From contig JBGTDX010000118.1 in assembly GCA_041748075.1 (NCBI GenBank), forward strand, positions 66,730-130,729: 64,000 nt of DNA. Direction: 5' to 3'. Source of the DNA: Thermoanaerobaculia bacterium (lineage in GTDB: Bacteria; Acidobacteriota; Thermoanaerobaculia; Gp7-AA8). A model generated the notes under the pieces. It did no database searches. It was not told the DNA's origin and saw only the letters and a list, made by a program, of their open reading frames with translations. Shown here in pieces: positions 9,956 through 61,898 of this stretch. The position numbers and the translations under genes were made by a program. Every line of letters starts with the position of its first letter. The first letter of the stretch is position 1.

Positions 9956-9968
9956 TGACGCACGAGGT

Positions 9969-10052
9969 GTCATCCTGAGCGAAGCGAAGGATCCCCCCAA
10001 GCCTTGCGATACTGCCAGTTGTAAGGGGATCCTTCGCTTCGCTCAGGATGAC
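9969..10052. repeat. Palindromic repeat element, family R1 copy a (gtcatcctgagcgaagcgaaggatcc ... ggatccttcgcttcgctcaggatgac).
   Basis: About 26-bp perfect arms around a about 32-nt loop. It makes spurious VILSEAKDP-type ORFs on both strands (ORF track 9708..10229 and 9970..10341). Confidence 0.8.
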
Positions 10053-10110
10053 ACTTGCTCCCTTGGCACCGCGCGAGTCTACGATGCGTGGAGCGCGCAC
10101 GATCCTCTCG

Positions 10111-13378: not shown

Positions 13379-14992
<1,614 letters not shown>

Positions 14993-14994
14993 CT

Positions 14995-15894
14995 ATGGCC
15001 AGATCATTTCCACCAGACGTCATCATCTGCGATCAGGATTCGCTCATGTTCGCCCGTTTCGACGGCGGCAAGTCGATGCCCCGGATCGTGACGGCGAAGA
15101 CGTACGCGCTCGATGACGATGTGTTTGCACCGGGGATCGTGACGCCCGCTCTCGCGCGGCCGGAACAGCTCACCGCGGTTCTCGGGCGCATGAAAAAGGA
15201 GCAGGGACGGCTCGATCGCGTTTCGCTGCTGCTGCCCGATTCCTGGTTCCGCATCAACCTGATTGACATTCCGACGCTGCCGGAGAAAAAGGCGGAGGCG
15301 GATGAAGTCGTGCGCTGGTCTCTGAAGAAATCCACGCCGATCCGGCCTGAAGAGTTCCGCCTGGCCTATCAGACCGTGGACAAGACGAGCTCCGGATCAC
15401 GGGTGCTCGTGGTCGCCGCTCTCGAGAAGACGCTCGCCGGAATCGAAAAGGCATTCGCCGAGACACAGCTCACTCCGGTGCTCATCGAGCCGGTCGGGAT
15501 GAACATCTGGAACAGCATCGCAGTACGAGAGCAGCCGGCCAACGATGACAGAATCTTCTTCTATGTCCGGAATCGGGAATTCACCACCGCGGTCTTCAGG
15601 AATGGCACGCCGCTGTTCTTCCGTTCGCGAGTGATGAGCGACGACCGGACGCTCCTTCAGGAGATCCGGCTTTCAGCGTCGTATTTCAAATCGAATCTCG
15701 AGATCACGCACGTGGAAAAATGCTACGTGGCGGGCCAGCAGTTCAACGATCAGGTATCGTCCACGATCTCCGAGGAGCTCGGCGCGACGACCTCCAGAGT
15801 CACGCTCGACAGCTACGTCGAATCATCTCCCTCGGTTGATACGCGCGCGATCGAGGCCGAGCTCACAGCCTGCGCAGGAGTGTTCACCGCTTGA
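14995..15894 (+). CDS. PilM/GspL-like cytoplasmic assembly protein (actin-like fold).
   Basis: ORF 14764..15894 trimmed to ATG 14995, 3 nt after the pilB stop. Position and size (299 aa) are consistent with PilM. Similarity is modest. Confidence 0.6.
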   Translation: MARSFPPDVIICDQDSLMFARFDGGKSMPRIVTAKTYALDDDVFAPGIVTPALARPEQLTAVLGRMKKEQGRLDRVSLLLPDSWFRINLIDIPTLPEKKAEADEVVRWSLKKSTPIRPEEFRLAYQTVDKTSSGSRVLVVAALEKTLAGIEKAFAETQLTPVLIEPVGMNIWNSIAVREQPANDDRIFFYVRNREFTTAVFRNGTPLFFRSRVMSDDRTLLQEIRLSASYFKSNLEITHVEKCYVAGQQFNDQVSSTISEELGATTSRVTLDSYVESSPSVDTRAIEAELTACAGVFTA

Positions 15895-16469
15895 AGACGC
15901 TTCACCTGAATCTCGCTTCGCGCCCGTATCGCGATTACACGCCTGTCTATGCCGTGGCGATCGTGCTCGCTCTCGTGACGGGCTTTCTCATGATCAACAA
16001 CATCCAGACCGCGTACCGTTACTTCGTCAACACCGAGGAAACGCGCGGAGAGATCGCCCGGGTCGAGGCCGAGACTGCTGCCGAAACCCGCGCGGCGGAA
16101 ACGCTGGAGCGATCCGCAGAGGGGATCAATGTACGGGCGCTCGCGATGGAGACGGCGTACATCAACGCGCAGATCGCCGAGCGCGCGTTCTCCTGGAGCA
16201 ATCTTCTCGACAACATGGAAAGGGTACTTCCCCGCAACGTCCGGCTGATGACGCTCAATCCCGACATTCAACCCGACGGAGATGTGAGACTCACCATCAC
16301 CGCCAGAGCCAAGGGGAGCGACGGCATGGTCACCATGCTGCGGAATATGCTCGGCGATCCTCACTTCGCCGATCCGTTCCCGGGAACCGACTCTCAGAAT
16401 GATGACGGCTCCTACAGCTTCAGTCTTTCGACGACCTATCGTCCGGATCCGCGGGGGCTGACGCGATGA
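15891..16469 (+). CDS. PilN-like (bitopic, N-terminal LNLASRP motif then a TM helix).
   Basis: MKTLHLNLASRPYRDYTPVYAVAIVLALVTGFLMINN. TTG start overlaps the upstream stop. Confidence 0.7.
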   Translation: MKTLHLNLASRPYRDYTPVYAVAIVLALVTGFLMINNIQTAYRYFVNTEETRGEIARVEAETAAETRAAETLERSAEGINVRALAMETAYINAQIAERAFSWSNLLDNMERVLPRNVRLMTLNPDIQPDGDVRLTITARAKGSDGMVTMLRNMLGDPHFADPFPGTDSQNDDGSYSFSLSTTYRPDPRGLTR

Positions 16470-17056
16470 TCTGGCGCGAGAAAAGGAGCCTGCTGATTGT
16501 TCTGGGCGTGCTGCTTGCGATCAATGTGGCATTCTTCCTGACATACAGGGTTCGATACCAGCAGAGGATCCAGGCGCTCGACGTGACGCTCGATCAGGCG
16601 AACGCGGCCCTGGAAGCCGCCCGCAGCCGGAAGGCGGCCGCAGAGCAGACTCTCACGGGTTACAAGTCGACGACCGCCGACATTCAGAGGATCTACAACG
16701 AAGTCTGGTCCACGCCGCAACGGCGGCTCACGTCCATGATCCTGGAGATTCGCGACCTGGAAAATCGCAGCAGAATGGTGCCGCGCTCCACGAGCTTCAC
16801 GCAGCAGGTCGAGAAGAAAGAATTCGGAACGCGGGCCATGACGATGAACTTCATGGTCCGGGGCACCTATGCACAGGTGCGCCAGTTCATCAACCTGCTC
16901 GAGTTGTCCCAGAACTTTGTGGTGATCGATCAGATCATGCTGGCAGACCCGACCGATGAAACCCAGCTCCTGAATCTGAACATTCAGATCAAGACACTCT
17001 TCCACGAGCCACTCGATCCGTCAGAGCAGTCGGCGCGGCGCGGAGGAACCTCCTGA
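16466..17056 (+). CDS. PilO-like protein (TM helix plus coiled coil).
   Basis: MIWREKRSLLIVLGVLLAINVAFFL followed by a coiled-coil region. 4-bp overlap with PilN. Confidence 0.65.
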   Translation: MIWREKRSLLIVLGVLLAINVAFFLTYRVRYQQRIQALDVTLDQANAALEAARSRKAAAEQTLTGYKSTTADIQRIYNEVWSTPQRRLTSMILEIRDLENRSRMVPRSTSFTQQVEKKEFGTRAMTMNFMVRGTYAQVRQFINLLELSQNFVVIDQIMLADPTDETQLLNLNIQIKTLFHEPLDPSEQSARRGGTS

Positions 17057-17736
17057 TGGACTGGTCGAACTGGAAGACCTGGCTCCTGCTCAGCGGCGTT
17101 GTGCTCGCCCTGTTCGCGATCTATGTCTTCGCGTCTCCCGACGCTCCCCTGCAGTTGCAGAATGAGCCCGAGGCCGTGCGTCCCGTTGCCGCGTCGCGGC
17201 AGGTCGCGGGCGGGGCAACGCGCTCGATTGCGCCTCCGGGCGTGGAACCGGTGCGCATCGATCTGCTCGAGCCGGCCAGCGGAAGCTTCAGCAGCGACCG
17301 CAACCTGTTCCGTTATGTAGAACCGCCTCCGCCTCCTCCCGCTCCAACACCCAGACCTCCCGCTCCCCCGCCGGATCGCGACAAGGACGGCATTCCAGAC
17401 TTCCAGGACAATTGTCCCGATGTATACAACCCGGACCAGGCGGACATCGATCGCAATGGCGTAGGTGATGCATGTCAGGAGGGGCCTATCGTTCCTCCAC
17501 CGCCGCCGCCGCCGCAACCGCCGGCGTTCAACTACACTTACATGGGAAGCTTCGGGACGCCCGCGCGGCCCATCGCGGCATTCTCGCGCGACGGACAGAT
17601 CGTCAACGTGAGGGTGGGCGAGACCTTCGGCGGACAATTCATCCTCCGGAACATAGGGATCGAGTCGGTGGACATCGGGTTCGTCGGATTTCCGCCGGAT
17701 GCGCGAAAGAGAGTCGCCGTCGGAACGCCTCCGTGA
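17056..17736 (+). CDS. PilP/GspC-like protein carrying a thrombospondin type-3 (Ca-binding) repeat and polyproline tracts.
   Basis: N-terminal TM helix. PPPPPPAPTPRPPAPPP, then DKDGIPDFQDNCPDVYNPDQADIDRNGVGDAC (a TSP3 / OmpA-N-like DxDxDGxxDxxD motif), then PPPPPPPQPP and a C-terminal beta-rich domain. Confidence 0.55.
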   Translation: MDWSNWKTWLLLSGVVLALFAIYVFASPDAPLQLQNEPEAVRPVAASRQVAGGATRSIAPPGVEPVRIDLLEPASGSFSSDRNLFRYVEPPPPPPAPTPRPPAPPPDRDKDGIPDFQDNCPDVYNPDQADIDRNGVGDACQEGPIVPPPPPPPQPPAFNYTYMGSFGTPARPIAAFSRDGQIVNVRVGETFGGQFILRNIGIESVDIGFVGFPPDARKRVAVGTPP

Positions 17737-17804
17737 CGTTTCGTCACGCTTGAGCGTCTGAGCTGTTATAGCCGAGCCACATGATCGATCGAGAGAAAAC
17801 ATTC

Positions 17805-20252
17805 ATGAACCGAAACAGACTGAAAGTCGCAACGACGCTACTTCTGCTGCTGCCTCTGCTTTCGTGTACGAGCTTCCGCTCGTATCAGAGCGCGAAAGAC
17901 TTCGAAGAGCAGGGCAAGTGGGACGAGGCGATCGTCGAATACCAGAAGGCACTCGAGGTCGATCCCAACAACGTCCGCTACAAAATGGCGCTCGACAGGA
18001 GCAAGCTGGAAGCTTCGCGCGCACACTTCGAGAAGGGCAAATCGCTCCGCGCGGCTGCAATCGAAGCGCGAAACCGGGGAGAGGCTGCGCGAGCGCTGCA
18101 GCTCAACGAGCTCGCGCTGGTCGAGTTCGAGCTCGTCGTCAGACTGGATTCCACAAACCAGTTTGCCGCGGTCGAGTATGCGAAAGTCGTCTCCGCGATT
18201 CAGGAAGCAACGGCCGCAGCAAACGGTCCGACCTTCGAAGAGCGCAAGCGCGCGGTCGTCACCAAGGCGCAGCCGCCACAACTCAACCCAACCTCGCTCG
18301 AGCCGATCTCACTGTCGTTCCCCCGCCCCACTCCAATCAAGGACATCTACCGTTCCCTCGGCAATGCGTTCGGCATCAACATCATCTTCGATCAGGGGGT
18401 CAAGGATGAAGAGCGCATCTCGATCGAGCTGCGGGACGTCACCGCGCAGCAGGCGCTCGAGCGCGTCATGCAGGCCGGCAATCAGTTCTACAAGGTCCTC
18501 GACGAGAAGACGCTCATCGTCATCCCCGACACACCACAGACCCGGCGTGACTACGAAGATCTCGTCATCCGTACGTTCTACCTTTCCAACGGAGATGCCG
18601 AGCAGGTGACCAACGTCGTCAGGACGATGATCGAAGCACGGAACGTATTTCCGCTCAAAGCGCTCAACGCGATCACGATCCGCGACACCGCGGACAAAGT
18701 GCGGATCGCAGAGAAGATCATCGAAGCAAACGACAAGGCGCGTGCAGAAGTCGTCGTGCAGGTCGAGCTTCTGCAGGTCGACGCCCGCAAGCTGCGCGAC
18801 ATCGGCCTCAAACTCGGCGCCTACAGCACGAGTGGCGCGTTGACCGACGCGGCCGGCGGCACGATCGGAAGCCTCCCGTACGGGGAGCTGGGCAACATCG
18901 CGCTGAACGATTTCAACTTCACGATTCCCACGCTCAGCTATACGCTCCTGAAGAACAACACCGACGCGCGGCTTCTCGCACGGCCGCAGCTGCGGATCTC
19001 CGAGGGTGAGGACGCAACGCTGCACATCGGCCAGAAACAGCCCATTCCCGTCTCGACGCTCTTCACGAACGTCGGCGTCGGCGGCGGATTCAACCAGGGT
19101 CCCATCACCTCGTTCCAGTACCAGGACGTAGGAATCAAGATCGCGATCACGCCGCGCGTCCATCACAACCGCGAAGTCTCGTTGAAGCTCACCGTCGAGG
19201 TGTCGAACATCGCGGGATTCGTTCCAGGCGGCGGAGAAAACTCTCCCGATCAGCCGATCATCGGAACCCGCACCATCCAGTCGACCATCCGACTCAAGGA
19301 CGGTGAGACGAACCTTCTCGCAGGCCTGATCCGGGAAGACGACTCGATCACCAAAGACGACATCCCCTTCCTGTCTGACCTTCCGGTCATCGGACGGCTG
19401 TTCAGCAGGGAACAGAACAACGTAGCGACCACGGACGTGGTCCTCACCATGACCCCGCACATCATCCGCATCCCCGACATCACGGACGAGGATCTCGCGC
19501 CGATGTGGGTCGGAACGACGAACAATCTGACCTTCCGCGGGGTTTCGCCGCGGCTCGAGTCAAACGTTCAGGCGGATCCGTTCAACAACGTGCCCCGCAC
19601 GACCACCGCGACACAGGAGAACCCGCCGCCGTCGCAGGAGTTCTTCGCCCCGGGCCAGGTGCCGGCGACGCAGCCTCCGCCCTCATCACCCGTTCCACCC
19701 GCATCCGGACCGAGCGACGTCTTCCGCCAGCAGCCGCAGCCACCGCCTCCCGGAGGCGGAGCCAATGAGCCGCAGAATCCAGGTGTTCAACCGCCGCCGC
19801 CGGGAGCGTCGTCGATGAACCAAGAAGACTACCGGCTCAAATTCGCCCCGCGAATCGCTCCGCAGCCGTCGAGAATCGCGCTCGGTCCCGGCGAAGAAAA
19901 GGTCTGGTCGATCGTTGCGATGGATGTAGCGGAGCTTGCGATCCCGCAGATGGTGCTGCACTACGACCCGCTCGCGATGGACATCGCTGGCTTTTCGCTG
20001 GGCACGGCACTCGAGATCAACCCTGAAGTTCCGCCGGTCGTATCGATCGACCGGGCGAATGGAACGATTCGCATCAGCTCGTCCGACGGCAGCATGCTCC
20101 AGTTCCGCTCCGGCGGTGAGGTCGTCGCCTTCCGGGTGCGGGGCGGCGTAACAGGCGACACGATGCTCGTGATCGAACCGCTCGCGTTCTCGCAACGCAA
20201 CGGCGAGCGCGTCGACGTTGCCGTCGCCGGCGGCTCGGCCCGGGTGGAGTAA
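17805..20252 (+). CDS. Secretin (PilQ/GspD family) lipoprotein with an N-terminal TPR-like segment and a about 260-aa C-terminal extension.
   Basis: Lipobox LLLLLPLLSC. Secretin core LLARPQLRISEGEDATLHIGQKQPIP...IIGTRTIQSTIRLKDGETNLLAGLI...DIPFLSDLPVIGRLFS...VVLTMTPHIIR. The Pro-rich linker and extra beta domain that follow are detailed in the secretin finding. Confidence 0.85.
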   Translation: MNRNRLKVATTLLLLLPLLSCTSFRSYQSAKDFEEQGKWDEAIVEYQKALEVDPNNVRYKMALDRSKLEASRAHFEKGKSLRAAAIEARNRGEAARALQLNELALVEFELVVRLDSTNQFAAVEYAKVVSAIQEATAAANGPTFEERKRAVVTKAQPPQLNPTSLEPISLSFPRPTPIKDIYRSLGNAFGINIIFDQGVKDEERISIELRDVTAQQALERVMQAGNQFYKVLDEKTLIVIPDTPQTRRDYEDLVIRTFYLSNGDAEQVTNVVRTMIEARNVFPLKALNAITIRDTADKVRIAEKIIEANDKARAEVVVQVELLQVDARKLRDIGLKLGAYSTSGALTDAAGGTIGSLPYGELGNIALNDFNFTIPTLSYTLLKNNTDARLLARPQLRISEGEDATLHIGQKQPIPVSTLFTNVGVGGGFNQGPITSFQYQDVGIKIAITPRVHHNREVSLKLTVEVSNIAGFVPGGGENSPDQPIIGTRTIQSTIRLKDGETNLLAGLIREDDSITKDDIPFLSDLPVIGRLFSREQNNVATTDVVLTMTPHIIRIPDITDEDLAPMWVGTTNNLTFRGVSPRLESNVQADPFNNVPRTTTATQENPPPSQEFFAPGQVPATQPPPSSPVPPASGPSDVFRQQPQPPPPGGGANEPQNPGVQPPPPGASSMNQEDYRLKFAPRIAPQPSRIALGPGEEKVWSIVAMDVAELAIPQMVLHYDPLAMDIAGFSLGTALEINPEVPPVVSIDRANGTIRISSSDGSMLQFRSGGEVVAFRVRGGVTGDTMLVIEPLAFSQRNGERVDVAVAGGSARVE

Positions 20253-20263
20253 CCAGCCAGCTC

Positions 20264-20737
20264 ATGTTCCGAAAGGTTAACGGAGAAAACGGATTCACAG
20301 TCGCCGAGCTCATTACGGTCGTGGCAATCATCGGCCTGCTCGCGGGGATGGCGATTCCGGTCGCAAAGTTCGGATTCCAGAGGCAGAAGGAGATCGAGCT
20401 CCGGAACAGACTTCGCAAGATCACCGATGCGATCGACCGCTACCACGACCTGCGGGTCAAGGGACTGATCAAAGAGCAGGTAACCCTCGGACAGGGCGAG
20501 TATCCGAAAGATCTTCAGCAGCTTGTCGAAGGCGTCGAGTTGATGGACGGAAAGAAAGTAAAGTTCCTGCGCGAGCGCGATCTGATCGACCCGATGACCG
20601 GCAGAAAAGAATGGTTCACCAGATCGAATACCGACGACTTCGATTCCATGAGCTCCGACAACAACAACGTCTTCGAAGTGCGATCGACCTCGACGAAACT
20701 CTCGCTGGACGGCAAGACGCGGTACAACGAATGGTGA
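20264..20737 (+). CDS. GspG/PulG-like type IV pilin (pilin 1).
   Basis: MFRKVNGENG|FTVAELITVVAIIGLLAGMAIPV is a canonical 10-aa leader plus N-methyl-Phe helix. Confidence 0.75.
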   Translation: MFRKVNGENGFTVAELITVVAIIGLLAGMAIPVAKFGFQRQKEIELRNRLRKITDAIDRYHDLRVKGLIKEQVTLGQGEYPKDLQQLVEGVELMDGKKVKFLRERDLIDPMTGRKEWFTRSNTDDFDSMSSDNNNVFEVRSTSTKLSLDGKTRYNEW

Positions 20738-20742
20738 AACTG

Positions 20743-21324
20743 ATGCCTGAAACTCGACGTGACGGTTGTGGGTTGTGGGTTGTGGGTTGTGGGACCGCCC
20801 GGACCCCACACAAACCCCAACTCACAACTCACAACTCACAACTCACAACCGGCCGGGCGGCGGCACCCACAACCCACAACCCACAACCCACAACCGGTCG
20901 GGCGGCCGGCTTCACCCTCATCGAGCTTCTCGTGGTCGTCACCATCGTCGGACTGCTCGCGGGCATCGCCGTCGTCAACGTCCTCGGGGCGCAGCGGAAG
21001 GCGGCGGAGAACGTGCTGAAAGCGGATCTCGCCCTGATGCGTCAGGGCATCGACAACTTCTACGCCGACAAACAGCGGTATCCCTCATCGCTCGAAGAGC
21101 TCGTCGAGGCGAAGTACATGCGCAGGATCCCCGTCGATCCGATCACGAAATCGGCCGACACATGGATCCCTGTCACCGAGGAAGTCGAGTTCGATGGAGG
21201 CGGCTTCGGGGGCAGTTTCGGCAGTGATTTCGATTATGACGCGCCCACGGGCCCCGGCATCGCCGACGTGAAGAGCGGCGCCGAGGGAGAAACCCTCGAT
21301 GGCGTGCCGTACGGGGAACTGTAA
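20743..21324 (+). CDS. GspG-like pseudopilin (pilin 2) with an unusually long, repeat-encoded leader. Start uncertain (ATG 20731 or 20743, or TTG/GTG 20770/20779).
   Basis: ORF track frame 20611..21324. Mature start ...TTGRAAG|FTLIELLVVVTIVGLLAGIAV at nt about 20908. There is no start codon between the repeat hairpin and the cleavage site, so the leader (about 40-56 aa) reads ...TTHNSQLTT...PTTHNPQPTT through the heptamer arrays. Confidence 0.55.
   Translation: MPETRRDGCGLWVVGCGTARTPHKPQLTTHNSQLTTGRAAAPTTHNPQPTTGRAAGFTLIELLVVVTIVGLLAGIAVVNVLGAQRKAAENVLKADLALMRQGIDNFYADKQRYPSSLEELVEAKYMRRIPVDPITKSADTWIPVTEEVEFDGGGFGGSFGSDFDYDAPTGPGIADVKSGAEGETLDGVPYGEL
20765..20894. repeat. Inverted arrays of heptanucleotide tandem repeats: (GTTGTGG)x4 ... 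(AACTCAC)x4 ... (CCCACAA)x4, forming an imperfect about 40-bp stem hairpin.
   Basis: Arrays seen at 20765-20792, 20819-20846 and 20866-20893. The flanking gaccgcccggacc / ggccgggcggc are also complementary. The whole structure is in-frame inside the leader of pilin 2. Confidence 0.9.
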
Positions 21325-21332
21325 GGTTTAGA

Positions 21333-21477
21333 GAACGGAATGTTGAATGTTGAATGTTGAATGTTGAATGAGCCCGCTTTCAAAGATTCTCGCGTGTGAC
21401 GAATGTTATGGATGCCCGCAGAAAAAACCTGCGCGGACCCATTCAACATTCAACATTCAACATTCAACATTCCGTTC
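21333..21477. repeat. Perfect 38-bp inverted repeat built from (ATGTTGA)x4+ATG and (TCAACAT)x4, separated by a 69-nt loop.
   Basis: gaacggaATGTTGAATGTTGAATGTTGAATGTTGAATG (21333-21370) is exactly complementary to CATTCAACATTCAACATTCAACATTCAACATtccgttc (21440-21477). The only usable start codon of pilin 3 (21368) is the last ATG of the left arm. Confidence 0.95.
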
Positions 21478-22099
21478 TAAAAATGTAAGAAATCAACAAG
21501 GCTTTACCTTAGCCTCCCTCCTCGTCATCCTGACCGTGATGTCGGTCATCCTCGCCTTCTCCGTCCCGCGCATGTGGTCCGACGTCATGCGAAGGGAGCG
21601 GGAGCAGCAGGCGGTCTGGGCGATGAAGCAGTACGCGCGCGCGATCACCGAGTATCAGAAAAAGCGCCGCGAGCTGCCGACGAAACTCGAGCAGCTCGAA
21701 GAGCAGACCGAGCCGCGAGTCATCCGCTCGCTCTATCCCAATCCATTCAGCGGAGAGCTCGACTGGGTTCCCGTGCCGCCGAGCACCGCCGTCCAGGTGC
21801 CCGGCCAGCCCGGCGCCCCTGGTGCGGGTCTTCCGACGCCGACGCCCGGATTGTTCCCTTCACCGTCGCCATCCCAGCCCGGGCTCAACCCGGGTACCGG
21901 ACTTCAGGGCGAATACTCCGGACCGATCGGCGGGGTCCGCCTCCCGCTGACGGGGCCGAGCATGATCGTTCTCAATGGTCAGGACCGGTACGAGAACTGG
22001 GTCTACACGATCACGGAGCTGGCGCAGGAGCAGAGTGGCGGTCCCGTCCAGGATCCGACGCGGGCGGCTCCGATTACACCGGGAAAGCCTAACCCATAA
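21368..22099 (+). CDS. GspG-like pseudopilin (pilin 3) with a Pro/Gly-rich C-terminal region. Its start codon lies inside the hairpin arm.
   Basis: MSPLSKILACDECYGCPQKKPARTHSTFNIQHSTFRSKNVRNQQG|FTLASLLVILTVMSVILAFSVP. The 45-aa leader is translated through the hairpin loop and right arm. Confidence 0.55.
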   Translation: MSPLSKILACDECYGCPQKKPARTHSTFNIQHSTFRSKNVRNQQGFTLASLLVILTVMSVILAFSVPRMWSDVMRREREQQAVWAMKQYARAITEYQKKRRELPTKLEQLEEQTEPRVIRSLYPNPFSGELDWVPVPPSTAVQVPGQPGAPGAGLPTPTPGLFPSPSPSQPGLNPGTGLQGEYSGPIGGVRLPLTGPSMIVLNGQDRYENWVYTITELAQEQSGGPVQDPTRAAPITPGKPNP

Positions 22100-22108
22100 A
22101 GCCCTCGT

Positions 22109-22192
22109 GTCATCCTGAGCGCAGCGAAGGATCCCCTGAGGACTTGCGGTAGCGCCTCGAGGCGGGGGATCCTTCGCTTCGCTCAGGTTGAC
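22109..22192. repeat. Family R1 palindromic element copy b (gtcatcctgagcgcagcgaaggatcccc ... ggggatccttcgcttcgctcaggttgac). Probable terminator after the pilin cluster.
   Basis: Seen directly, with about 27-bp arms. Confidence 0.8.
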
Positions 22193-22304
22193 ATCTTTGT
22201 CAGTTTGAGCTCCGAGTCCTAAAAACCGCTCCGGGACTCTCTCAAATGCACTAGTTCTGGAATGAATGGGTCGGCCAGAATTTCGCTCCTTCGAACTCCG
22301 TTGG

Positions 22305-24963: not shown

Positions 24964-25167
24964 GGTGGTGTTCCCTTTCACCTCGTGTACAAAGCAAGGA
25001 TGCTGCCCACGGATGAGGTTCCCGGTTCTGGGTCTGGGTTCCGGCAGTTCCGGGAGAGTCGAATCGTTTCGGCCACGTGACATCAGTTCGATGATGAGTG
25101 CATCATTGAAATCGCAAATCAAAGAAGGACGTCTTCCCAAGCCAGAACCCGGAACCCAGAACCCAAA

Positions 25168-39735: not shown

Positions 39736-39956
39736 CGTACTTCTCCTAATCCGCCCAGTCGGAAATGCGGGTGACATGCCACGAGACCTAAAACCACTAA
39801 GGCTTTAATATCAGTAGGATACGCCCTGAAGAGCCCGCCTCGAGCATCCGGGAATTCCTCTACAGAGGACACTGCGTCACCCGCAGGTGTCAGGGAGCTT
39901 TAGTTATTAGACTATAACGGGTTGCGGGGAGGAATCATTTCTTGCCGCCTGGGTGA

Positions 39957-40026
39957 AGAATTCAGAATTCAGAATGAAGAAAGAAGACTGGCCCTGGTCC
40001 TTTCTGCATTCTGAATTCTAAATTCT
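39957..40026. terminator. Long imperfect AT-rich palindrome (gaattcagaattcagaatg...cattctgaattctaaattc); probable terminator downstream of aroK.
   Basis: About 70-nt near-palindrome seen directly. Confidence 0.5.
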
Positions 40027-40035
40027 CAATTCTCC

Positions 40036-40551
40036 TCAACTCCGTCGCATCCGTTCGCGCGGCAACTCGAGAACAATCCGTTCCACAATCTCGGCGGTCG
40101 ACTGCTCTTCACGAATCTCCACGGTCACGTCGGCAAGCCGGTAGTATTTGAGCCGGTGCATGAAAAGCCCATGCGCGGCGCTCTCGTCGTGAAACATCGG
40201 CCGTTCCGCCGATTTGTCCTGAATCCTGCTGACGAGCAACGGAAACGGCGCTGAAAGGTAGACGGAGAAACCCTCGGACTTGATGAGCTGAATGTTGTCC
40301 TCGAAGGTAAAGGTACCGCCCCCCGTGGCGATGACACCGCTTTCGACGTACTTCGTGGTGCGAAGAAGATCGCGCTCGCGCTTGCGGAACCATGGCTCGC
40401 CCTGGGCGGCGAAGATCTCCTTGACGGACATCTTCTCGGCCGACTCGACCAGGTCGTCGAGATCGAAGAACGGAGTTTCGAGCCGTCGTGCGAGCTCCCG
40501 TCCCGTCGTCGTCTTTCCAGCGCCCATGAAGCCGATGAGGAAAATCTTCAT
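40036..40551 (-). CDS. aroK: Shikimate kinase.
   Basis: [24 protein letters not shown] (Walker A) ... GGG. Confidence 0.85.
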   Translation of the reverse strand: MKIFLIGFMGAGKTTTGRELARRLETPFFDLDDLVESAEKMSVKEIFAAQGEPWFRKRERDLLRTTKYVESGVIATGGGTFTFEDNIQLIKSEGFSVYLSAPFPLLVSRIQDKSAERPMFHDESAAHGLFMHRLKYYRLADVTVEIREEQSTAEIVERIVLELPRERMRRS

Positions 40552-43516: not shown

Positions 43517-44351
43517 TCCGCCTCTGGTTGCGCTGGATCAAAGTAAGCCACCGGTGAAGTTTCTCGATGGTCTTCTGCCTCTGCTCGTCGTGGTCCGGCA
43601 CGATCGAGAGCGCCGGCCCCGCCTCGACAGGATTCGACGCTTCTTCCCCTCTCCCCGCGGGAGAGGGGTCAGGGGTTAGGGAACCTTGTTGAGGTGAACG
43701 TTCCGTTAGACCTTCGACTTCCCCGATGGCCTCGAGCTCCTCCGGATCCCACGTCACTTCGCCCTGACGACCCTCGGACTCGATTTGAGTTGCTGACTCA
43801 CTCTCGGGACCGTTGAACGGATCAAAGACGGGAGCCATCACCCCTGACCCCTCTCCCGCGGGGAGAGGGGAAAAGGCAACATCCCGGAACTCCGGAATCT
43901 CCTCGGTGACCTGAATCGGGCGGGAGTACTTTTCCGGATTGAGCTGTCGCTCGAGGGTTTCGATGCTCGCCTGGACTTCCAGATCGGACGGGATGAATGC
44001 ATGGACGAGCTTGAACTTCTTAATGGCTTCCACCTTCTCGCCGAGCGCGAGATACGATTCGGCCGCCAGCCGGGCAGCCACGACATTCTCCGGATCGATC
44101 TGGAGTGCGCGCGAGAGTGCTTCGACCGCCTCGCCATGGCGCTCCTGCTGGGAGAGCAGTCTGCCGAGACTCACCCAGGCGGACAGATAGGCGGGATGCC
44201 GTTCGATTCCCTCCCGCAGTACCCGCTCGGCCTCCTCGACCTGTCCCGCCTTCCGCAGCTCCTCCGCCAGGGGAAAGAACATCCTGGATCCGGGATCGGA
44301 CGCGAGCCGAGCCTTCAGCTCGTCGATCTTCGGGCTTTCAGGACCAGTCAT
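43509..44351 (-). CDS. TPR-repeat protein with an acidic C-terminal region containing two in-frame copies of the R3 palindrome.
   Basis: TPR-like ...AERVLREGIERHPAYLSAWVSLGRLL...ALQIDPENVVA.... The C-terminus carries SPLPAGEGSG and PSPAGRGEE, encoded by the palindromes. Confidence 0.65.
   Translation of the reverse strand: MTGPESPKIDELKARLASDPGSRMFFPLAEELRKAGQVEEAERVLREGIERHPAYLSAWVSLGRLLSQQERHGEAVEALSRALQIDPENVVAARLAAESYLALGEKVEAIKKFKLVHAFIPSDLEVQASIETLERQLNPEKYSRPIQVTEEIPEFRDVAFSPLPAGEGSGVMAPVFDPFNGPESESATQIESEGRQGEVTWDPEELEAIGEVEGLTERSPQQGSLTPDPSPAGRGEEASNPVEAGPALSIVPDHDEQRQKTIEKLHRWLTLIQRNQRRND
43646..43675. repeat. R3 palindromic element copy b (cccctctccccgcgggagaggggtcaggggt), inside the TPR CDS.
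   Basis: Seen directly. Confidence 0.6.
43841..43872. repeat. R3 element copy c (acccctgacccctctcccgcggggagagggg), inverted relative to copy b, inside the TPR CDS.
   Basis: Reverse complement matches copy b including the flanking gaggggtcaggggt. Confidence 0.6.
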
Positions 44352-58481: not shown

Positions 58482-58725
58482 CTAGTGTCCCGAGCTACCT
58501 AACCGGCGCTGGGCGCCGGTGAAGGGGTGATGAACCACCGTGTCATGCTGAGCGAGGTCACGTCATCCTGAGCGAAGCGAAGGATGACACATCGGTAGGT
58601 TTCCGCGACAGGGTTCCTTACAAGCGGCTGAATGACAATCCCGTCATTGCGGGCGAGCGATGAACCAGGCGTCATCCTGAGAGACTGTGAATTAATTGGA
58701 CAGAAGTGTCATCCCGATCCTCTGG
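58482..58725. repeat. Cluster of degenerate R1-family palindromic units (gtcatgctgagcgaggtcacgtcatcctgagcgaagcgaaggatgac ...; gtcatcctgagag...gtgtcatcccg) plus a conserved about 50-nt element shared with 3062-3112.
   Basis: Seen directly. Lies in the 5' region of the ABC substrate-binding gene. Confidence 0.6.
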
Positions 58726-61844: not shown

Positions 61845-61898
61845 CTAGTGTCCTGTAACGGTGAAATCGCTAGCGATTTCACCGTTACAGGACACTAG
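61845..61898. repeat. Perfect 54-bp palindrome CTAGTGTCCTGTAACGGTGAAATCGCT|AGCGATTTCACCGTTACAGGACACTAG, between the divergent kinase-fusion and rho genes.
   Basis: 27+27 nt exact inverted repeat read directly. The 9-mer CTAGTGTCC recurs at 53539 and 58482. Confidence 0.95.

Follow-up and report, generated by a model that had tools for sequence, protein, structure and literature searches.

A heptanucleotide-repeat hairpin lies in frame within a prepilin leader and belongs to a class of such hairpins in Thermoanaerobaculia

The pilus operon of a Thermoanaerobaculia bacterium contains a hairpin made of 7-nucleotide (nt) tandem repeats at the 5' end of the second of three prepilin genes (hereafter pilin 1, pilin 2 and pilin 3), which we analyzed within a 64,000-nt stretch of contig JBGTDX010000118.1 (hereafter the window, with positions counted from its first base). 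We assign this feature with high confidence as an inverted pair of heptanucleotide simple sequence repeats (SSRs) that lies in frame within the leader-coding segment of pilin 2. It belongs to a class that exists across Thermoanaerobaculia, in which arms of about 31 nt are built of 7-mers, the 5' arm is rich in G, and the repeat unit varies by site and by genome. On balance, we favor the explanation that the hairpin is a self-renewing product of mutation that is tolerated at this site because the leader is cleaved off.

The element consists of three heptamer arrays, each a 100% match to its unit in Tandem Repeats Finder (TRF) (Table 1). The outer two arrays form inverted-repeat arms of 31 nt each (20763-20793 and 20866-20896) that are 100% complementary, and RNA folding adds an inner helix that lengthens the stem to ~43 bp. 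The predicted free energy (dG) of this structure was -85.3 kcal/mol (z -8.2) for the segment 20758-20900 and -104.7 kcal/mol (z -8.1) for 20722-20925, with 0 of 200 shuffled sequences equally stable. Both the repeats and the stem exceed chance expectation by far. The first-pass annotation of this DNA had described three heptamer arrays, a stem of about 40 bp, and a pilin-2 frame that runs through all three arrays with no start codon after the structure, and all of these observations were borne out. The middle array, which lies in the loop, departs from the right arm at one base in each unit; with a single G.U in every unit it can also form a duplex with the left arm (dG -54.4 kcal/mol), so that an alternative hairpin is possible during transcription. 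By alignment, this array is the positional counterpart of a perfect partner array, (CCCAGAA)4, in the related locus L001.

Several other properties of the folded region were considered. When read in the (GGGTTGT)n register, the left arm contains five G3 tracts in the G3N4 pattern of a G-quadruplex motif; we rejected a G-quadruplex as a general explanation, as it suits this arm and not most other units of the class. Pairing at the base of the fold between GGUGAA in the start region and UUCACC in the F-T codons is probably incidental, because coding fixes both segments in all orthologs. A scan for intrinsic terminators found no terminator-like site and no U-run at the pilin-2 or pilin-3 hairpin, and the sequence immediately after the right arm is CCGGTCGGGCGG. 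A search of the 64-kb window against Rfam returned no match at gathering thresholds, and the hairpins received only sub-threshold matches resembling microRNA precursors.

Table 1. Positions of the pilin-2 element, its genes and the other heptamer hairpins in the window.
Feature	Position	Strand	Remarks
Pilin 1, leader MFRKVNGENG↓FTVAELI	20264-20737	+	Open reading frame (ORF); weak Pfam N_methyl match; stop TGA 20735-20737
Conserved pilin-2 start ATG, in ATGgTGA overlap with pilin-1 stop	20728-20730	+	Translational-coupling junction
Pilin 2 ORF, GspG-like pseudopilin	20728-21324	+	Predicted leader of 60 amino acids (aa), mature part of 137 aa
Left (5') arm, (GGTTGTG)x4.3	20764-20793	+	TRF, 100% match; encodes GCGLWVVGCG
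Inner stem, 5' side, ccgcccgg.cc	20795-20805	+	Fold; pairs with 20851-20860
Middle array, (CAACTCA)x4.6, in loop	20818-20849	+	TRF, 100% match
Inner stem, 3' side, ggccgggcgg	20851-20860	+	Fold
Right (3') arm, (ACCCACA)x4.4	20865-20895	+	TRF, 100% match; encodes PTTHNPQPTT
Prepilin cleavage/methylation motif G↓FTLIEL	20908-20928	+	Translation; G1, F2, T3 and E6 invariant
Sister hairpin at pilin-2/pilin-3 junction, (GAATGTT)4.7 / (CATTCAA)4.7	21327-21483	+	dG -87.9, z -11
Degenerate hairpin, GGTTCTG-like / CCAGAAC	25017-25165	+	TRF; divergent intergenic region
Degenerate hairpin, AGAATTC / TTCTGAA	39954-40033	-	3 nt past stop of shikimate-kinase-like (aroK-like) gene 40036-40551

The pilin-2 reading frame is free of stop codons through all three arrays, and its left arm begins 26 nt past the pilin-1 stop, yet inside the pilin-2 ORF. 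Translation could begin in frame at ATG 20728, which gives the predicted 60-aa leader (MVKLMPETRRDGCGLWVVGCGTARTPHKPQLTTHNSQLTTGRAAAPTTHNPQPTTGRAAG↓FTLIELL), at ATG 20743 (56 aa), or within the left arm at a TTG (46 aa) or a GTG (43 aa). The only codons that separate the right arm from GGC TTC (G↓F, 20908-20913) are GGT CGG GCG GCC, so that this interval contains no ATG, GTG or TTG and, in frame, none of the near-cognate starts CTG, ATT, ATC and ATA. A leader of at least 38-56 aa had been proposed previously; the proposed minimum was slightly low, the actual minimum being 43 aa. A database product that is 100% identical to the pilin-2 translation (P0001, 197 aa) also starts at ATG 20728 (MVKLMPETRRD...).

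The protein has the features of a class III signal, with G at -1, F at +1, E at +5 and then a hydrophobic helix of ~20 aa (G↓FTLIELLVVVTIVGLLAGIAVV), and the four signature residues of its cleavage motif (Table 1) are unchanged across 35 orthologs (alignment A1). It matches Pfam N_methyl with 28.4 bits (cut-off 21.2) and Pfam T2SSG with 19.4 bits, just below the cut-off of 21. Many homologs carry the Joint Genome Institute (JGI) name general secretion pathway protein G. The operon also encodes a secretin (17781-20252; Pfam Secretin, 1.2e-39), a PilO-like protein (16466-17056) and the two other prepilins. Prepilin leaders are usually basic and roughly 5-30 aa long; pilin 2 departs from this short basic form, with a predicted leader of 60 aa and at least 43 aa. 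We know of no prepilin leader as long as 60 aa.

We compared this region across 80 orthologous Thermoanaerobaculia loci and the window (81 sequences, 1.22 Mb), together with seven contigs of close relatives, all of which are metagenome-assembled consensus sequences whose counts across loci are phylogenetically non-independent. In 49 of 78 loci, pilin 2 directly follows pilin 1 without repeats and has a leader of 8-21 aa. Pilin-1 orthologs end in KTRYNEW and a stop codon in every locus, and in 45 of the 49 hairpin-free orthologs the pilin-2 start overlaps that stop (AAC GAA TGG TGA, read as ATG GTG A..) and the frame is stop-free to G↓F; the overlapping-start codons in this group were 40 ATG and 6 GTG. 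As the window retains the overlapping ATG of the hairpin-free orthologs, we conclude that its 130-nt structure is an insertion or expansion inside the leader-coding segment, where it is placed between ...ETRRD and GRAAG↓F. The absence of repeats from 49 of 78 orthologs indicates that the hairpin is dispensable for the pilin.

The remaining 29 of 78 loci contain more than 60 nt at the pilin-1/pilin-2 junction, mostly in the form of heptamer arrays. Two layouts were apparent. In one, neither arm unit contains a stop triplet and reading from the ancestral start continues through the entire hairpin, as in the window, L001 (88 codons), L166, L161-L164 and, with a single array, L062. In the other, the left-arm unit contains TGA (e.g., GATGAAC or AGTGATG), and pilin 1 ends before the left arm begins. 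The start ATG then lies in the last left-arm unit or in the loop, often preceded by GAGG or GGA, and the right arm is translated (..VHRSSFIVHRS..QKG↓FSLIEL). A Shine-Dalgarno-like GAGG or GGA and the start ATG lie within the stem, at the left arm's 3' end, in L014, L018, L025, L026, L033, L051, L057, L066 and at pilin 3 of the window, whose hairpin has this second layout (start ATG 21368, the last unit of its left arm, with the right arm translated).

The orthologous hairpin architecture recurs in assemblies that are independent of one another and derive from different samples and assemblers (L001, L161/L162, L163/L164 and L166). The first-pass annotation had held that homologs with conventional short leaders and no repeats, or an assembly artifact, would speak against its proposal, and had suggested a search of relatives for heptamer arrays of other units or counts. 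Such short leaders are found in the 49 hairpin-free orthologs and hairpin-type junctions in the other 29; arrays of other units and counts were indeed recovered from relatives, and the recurrence of the architecture in independent assemblies speaks against an artifact.

Heptamer arrays are also found in the leaders of distant prepilins (39-57% identity) recovered by a metagenome scan (L088 and L127), and L062 likewise has such an array. The matches of this one scan included no close relative, with the best at 57% identity, and were dominated by the generic GFTLIELL pattern. In L088, a CGTGAGG/CCTCACG hairpin (2856-2932) lies in a 53-aa leader; in L127, a 16-aa leader is almost wholly encoded by (CAATCGT)4.6 (2968-2999). 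L081 has heptamer arrays at 536-656 and 1064-1159, and a 14-unit (GTTGCCG) array directly follows its prepilin gene.

Heptamers are the predominant tandem repeats of these sequences. In the 81 sequences, we found 86 perfect arrays of at least 3 copies at period 7, compared with 2, 15, 7, 0, 1 and 0 at periods 5, 6, 8, 9, 10 and 11, respectively. TRF reported 208 period-7 arrays, which makes this the commonest tandem-repeat period, above even the coding periods 3, 6 and 9. Seventy-two arrays are paired with a reverse-complement array at most 300 nt away, and dozens of different units are represented, four of them within the 64-kb window alone. The pilin-3 hairpin had previously been described as sharing the architecture of the pilin-2 hairpin with other units; we find that this is correct and that it generalizes to these 72 hairpins.

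Members of the class have a median of 4.4 units per arm, loops of 7-156 nt and a median arm length of 31 nt (interquartile range (IQR) 28-33). The left arm mostly begins at most 25 nt from the stop codon of the upstream gene (up to 42 nt in a few cases), where genes beside hairpins were called by a codon-usage frame heuristic on the flanks. The flanking genes are co-directional for most hairpins; other hairpins are placed between convergent genes, whose stops are then both 1-6 nt from the arms, and a few separate divergent genes. Outside the pilin sites, the following start codon is usually at most ~20 nt past the right arm and in some cases within it, while at pilin sites there is no start codon after the right arm. 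The class has a clear polarity: the 5' arm has more G than C in 56 of 58 hairpins, which holds for both DNA strands at once, and stop triplets occur in 20 left-arm units versus 1 of 58 right-arm units. No member is followed by a U-run. A unit can recur at several places in a genome, as AATTGAA does in L004 and GAAGGCA in L036 (3 sites each). Loops at different sites are unrelated, and only orthologous pilin-3 loops match one another (z 8.7).

The way in which these hairpins change is most evident between the window and L001, whose mature pilin-2 proteins are 96% identical and whose elements can be aligned position by position. The two differ in concert at every unit of each array, with GGTTGTG in the window and GGTTCTG in L001 for the left array, CTCACAA and CCCAGAA for the middle array, and CCCACAA and CTCACAA for the right array. 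The perfect partner of the left arm is the third array in the window and the second array in L001. In L166 there is a plain GGTTGTG/CCCACAA hairpin with an unrelated loop, and L161-L164 contain nested GGTTCTG/CCCAGAA arrays with a 2-unit GGGTTGT remnant. L165 and L161 have the same mature protein and different leaders. L161 and L162 are identical despite coming from different samples and assemblers. Insert lengths in four related lineages (161, 170, 257 and 257 nt) are all 2 modulo 3 and stop-free from the ancestral ATG.

The pilin-3 hairpin keeps its unit, GAATGTT, among relatives. Its untranslated left arm measures 26 nt in L001, 33 nt in the window, 40 nt in L161 and more than 42 nt in L167, whereas each of these four has a translated right arm of 33 nt. 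One subclade has a left-arm unit, (AACGATG), that agrees with the start context cgATGAAC seen in hairpin-free relatives. From these patterns, we infer that the hairpins are generated in place and continually homogenized by slippage in the arms and by copying from arm to arm, and that the frame is under purifying selection at every translated arm.

To describe where hairpins lie, we measured their density relative to the pilin-2 G↓F site over +/-10 kb. Density was 9.4 hairpins per 10 kb at the pilin-1 to pilin-2 junction, 5.7 at the pilin-2 to pilin-3 junction and 2.6 at the secretin to pilin-1 junction; the rest of the interval had 0.07-0.33 hairpins per 10 kb, apart from one more local peak (1.2) near -6 kb. 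Of 59 hairpins, 32 fall within about 6% of the sequence, and hairpins are 10-100 times denser per base at the three prepilin junctions than elsewhere. A rough tally per gene junction suggests an excess of about 4-14 times.

The peak ~6 kb upstream of pilin 2 is a second hot spot, with hairpins in L036 (3422-4057, where three GAAGGCA/TTCTGCC hairpins lie in tandem), L037 (3947-4055), L031, L055, L063 and L067. It corresponds approximately to the junction in the window between a 537-aa ORF (13379-14992) and the ORF at 14764-15894.

We propose the following account of the pilin-2 hairpin. In a compact operon, pilin 2 would originally have begun at the ATG that overlaps the pilin-1 stop, and given this overlap the prepilin leader would be the only downstream DNA able to absorb ~130 extra bases. 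Slippage at replication would homogenize the units within an arm and intrastrand template switching would copy one arm onto the other, without transposition of the hairpin. The gene would accommodate the structure by staying stop-free and in frame, and prepilin peptidase would remove the resulting leader. Ribosomes reinitiating at ATG 20728 would have to melt the ~43-bp stem (-85 to -105 kcal/mol), which begins at 20761, 33 nt downstream; this should reduce pilin-2 synthesis and tie it to translation of the upstream gene. If any of the three arrays gained or lost a single unit, pilin 2 would be expected to shift out of frame. The hairpin probably throttles or couples translation.

Several points weigh against this account. 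That the hairpin is translated and a 60-aa leader cleaved off is a prediction, and slippage and template switching are read from patterns, with neither process observed. The account does not explain the preference for a 7-nt unit. In addition, tolerance alone does not obviously account for the density of hairpins at prepilin junctions; this enrichment argues for some selection, which may be selection for a function.

One such function would be a contingency switch, in which slipped-strand mispairing of a single unit turns each pseudopilin ON or OFF and the complementary arm raises slippage and templates repair. This explanation, which had been suggested before and which we consider doubtful, draws on a unit length that is not a multiple of 3, on the three perfect arrays between ATG 20728 and the G↓F site at 20908, on the copy number shifts seen over evolution in the untranslated pilin-3 arm (26/33/40/42+ nt), on the recurrence of heptamer arrays in prepilin leaders of even distant lineages (L088, L127, L062), and on the strong enrichment of hairpins at pilin 5' ends. 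However, we found no OFF allele, as the in-frame ATG is kept in all of ~29 hairpin-bearing lineages, and unit counts are identical in four contigs (L161-L164) of one population from different samples. Tracts of ~4 units (IQR 28-33 nt) are unlike typical contingency tracts, hairpins also occur at non-coding sites, even between convergent genes, where frame switching is meaningless, and a single array would suffice for switching, which leaves the inverted partner unexplained. Phase variation is therefore mechanistically possible and received no direct support, given the intact start and the constant copy number just described. Nor is a mechanism for gating individual pseudopilins, also proposed earlier, required by the data, since the hairpin is not pilin-specific and also follows the stop codons of unrelated genes (aroK; upstream of recN; and at many of the other loci). 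The function could instead reside in the RNA, as a selected intercistronic element that sets pilin stoichiometry by blocking 3'-to-5' decay in the manner of a repetitive extragenic palindromic (REP) element, by providing an RNase III site, or by sequestering the start; we regard this, too, as improbable, to a similar degree. It would fit the extreme stability of the stems, with their large z-scores, the persistence of a hairpin at the junction despite turnover of units, loops and array number, with co-variation of the arms, the presence of a Shine-Dalgarno-like GAGG or GGA and an ATG inside the stem in many genomes, and the position of stems, which mostly start at most 25 nt from the upstream stop and are enriched at all three pilin junctions. 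RNase III could also plausibly act on a perfect duplex of 30-40 bp. Against such an element, the architecture is not uniform (ATG 20728 of the window lies 33 nt upstream of the stem and is unsequestered), hairpins are missing from 49 of 78 orthologs, template switching would also yield a compensatory pattern without selection, the heptamer periodicity would have no role, and no Rfam family matches.

Two further explanations concern the origin of the sequence. In-frame palindromic insertions are known in Rickettsia, and a miniature transposable or REP-like palindrome could similarly have inserted in the pilin-2 leader; the sharing of units among sites (in L004 and L036, and GGTTCTG at both the L001 pilin-2 site and upstream of recN in the window) would be expected from this, although loops and flanks differ among copies, the window and L001 elements are homologous throughout and show unit-wide substitutions instead of replacement, and we saw no target duplications and no terminal inverted repeats beyond the arrays. 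A truly mobile element of this genome, the GTCATCCTGAGCGAAGCGAAGGATC palindrome, keeps its sequence between copies, which the heptamer hairpins do not. Because loops are unrelated between sites, we dropped the identification with a mobile element, which we consider very unlikely. A sequencing or assembly artifact, or an inactivated pseudogene, has a negligible chance of being correct: inverted repeats do disturb assemblies (the inverted start copy in L165, the break at F+1 in L167), whereas the orthologous hairpin is present in at least 5 independent assemblies, L161 equals L162 across samples and assemblers, every one of them retains an intact frame of 60-88 codons with no stop, and the mature part is highly conserved (78-96% identity). 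Together, the lack of OFF alleles, the non-uniform start layout, the non-coding sites and the hairpin-free state of most orthologs argue against a dedicated, indispensable device. There is a slim prospect that contingency and translational control are combined in a self-correcting gate on each pseudopilin, in which a slip silences the gene, the complementary arm templates its restoration and the stem couples it to the upstream cistron. If this were true, it would provide ON/OFF and dosage control of each subunit of a pilus or type II secretion system (T2SS) fiber in soil Acidobacteriota, for example against pilus-specific phages, and would imply processing of prepilins with leaders of 43-88 aa. 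For the pilin-2 hairpin itself, we retain the explanation of a self-renewing structure tolerated by a cleavable leader.

Heptamer arrays have been described in other bacteria. Xanthomonas genomes contain 70-75 convergent inverted pairs of GGGAATC arrays each, of which 89-93% are intergenic, located ~28 nt from the upstream ORF, conserved in position and variable in length between close species, with unknown function (Rehm et al. 2015, PMC4692102). The hairpins of Thermoanaerobaculia resemble these in being short tandem 7-nt arrays in convergent pairs that can form a stem-loop with the G-rich arm 5' on each strand, in being mostly intergenic, with the upstream ORF's end much closer than the next gene, and in keeping their position while length and sequence vary. 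The G3N4 pattern of the window's left arm is a further point in common. Unlike the Xanthomonas arrays, which have essentially one unit genome-wide, those described here have dozens of unrelated units, most without G3 tracts, and the window instance lies inside an ORF and must be translated. Clustering at prepilin starts and concerted compensatory unit replacement are not among the properties given for Xanthomonas in the sections of PMC4692102 considered here. Judged by this analogy, the Xanthomonas GGGAATC system is the closest published counterpart, from which the present hairpins differ in their many units, their translation, their prepilin clustering and their compensatory unit replacement. 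An excess of heptanucleotide SSRs in bacteria is attributed to a 2007 survey cited in both PMC4692102 and PMC4679880, and both papers also cite a suggestion that the 7-nt preference reflects a polymerase footprint.

Direct repeats of the heptamer TAACTGA precede start codons in Beggiatoaceae, Cyanobacteria and Bacteroidetes (MacGregor 2015, PMC4679880). Like these and the cyanobacterial short tandemly repeated repetitive (STRR) heptamers, for which a role in translational regulation has been suggested (PMC4679880), the present arrays have few copies (2-6 in those systems) and lie a few nucleotides from starts. The TAACTGA repeats differ in having one fixed unit, in being nearly always direct (1 inverted case in 170 sets), in being predicted to be unstructured, and in being untranslated (PMC4679880).

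The arrangement of a unit that is not a multiple of 3 between a start codon and a mature surface protein, in a segment that is cleaved off, is shared with Neisseria opa and pilC. In that genus, opa has CTCTT repeats in its leader-coding region and pilC a poly-G tract, and both genes are phase-variable. Unlike opa and pilC, the present hairpins show no ON/OFF polymorphism, and their tracts are short, uniform and accompanied by an inverted, hairpin-forming partner. REP elements stabilize upstream mRNA and are mobilized by transposases, and Rickettsia palindromic elements are tolerated in frame in ORFs and spread as copies. Like REP elements, bacterial interspersed mosaic elements (BIMEs) and Rickettsia palindromic elements, the heptamer hairpins are palindromic repeats after genes in operons; unlike these, whose sequence is conserved between copies, they share only their architecture.

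The window contains two degenerate members of the class outside the pilus operon (Table 1), both of which are placed as expected for the class. The hairpin at 25017-25165, which shares its unit with the pilin-2 hairpin of L001, stops 3 nt short of the recN-like start ATG 25169, where there is no obvious Shine-Dalgarno sequence. Downstream of the hairpin at 39954-40033, the next minus-strand gene starts at 39777, ~177 nt away on that strand. Separate from these is the sequence-conserved palindrome GTCATCCTGAGCGAAGCGAAGGATC, which occurs at 9967-10054 and 22108-22193 as a pair of inverted copies ~30 nt apart, the latter site directly after pilin 3, and as a half-copy at 58562-58586. It is also found in L001 (2550-2633 and 3351-3433), where one copy is nested in the loop of the pilin-3 heptamer hairpin; it resembles a mobile element of the REP or MITE (miniature inverted-repeat transposable element) type, and 0 chance matches are expected. 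Two further palindromic features were noted: a 43-nt inverted repeat at 43639-43877 (91% complementary, 153 nt apart) with the palindromic core CCCTCTCCCCGCGGGAGAGGGG followed by TCAGGGGT, and a perfect 54-nt palindrome at 61845-61898 (27+27 nt, no spacer), CTAGTGTCCTGTAACGGTGAAATCGCT/AGCGATTTCACCGTTACAGGACACTAG. In the pilus operon, the secretin combines an N-terminal TPR with a long P-rich linker and shows a weak cohesin-like match at its C-terminus, and the product of the ORF at 17056-17736 is rich in proline and has a thrombospondin type-3 repeat (Pfam 6e-06).

These hairpins have consequences for annotation and assembly. Gene callers choose arbitrary starts at them, as P0002, P0003 and P0004 each begin at a different internal codon, and assemblies break or become chimeric at heptamer hairpins. 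At the start of the L165 contig (positions 1-35), the 5' end of pilin 2 is repeated in inverted form, a fold-back chimera. Contig L167 is broken precisely at codon F+1 of pilin 2, and NCBI therefore annotates this protein as partial.

Our analysis shows that inverted pairs of heptamer SSRs, reported until now for Xanthomonas, also occur in Acidobacteriota, and it adds testable properties, namely concerted compensatory unit replacement, a strict polarity with a G-rich 5' arm and a stop-free 3' arm, and a 10-100-fold excess per base at prepilin starts. Translation through the hairpin, if true, predicts peptides from ...PTTHNPQPTTGRAAG and a mature N-methyl-FTLIELL N-terminus. If this prediction holds, the pilin-2 leader would be the longest class III (prepilin) leader of which we are aware, and a cleavable leader would serve as a safe harbor in which a 30-40-bp duplex can be deposited by the repeat-generating machinery of the genome while the protein stays intact.

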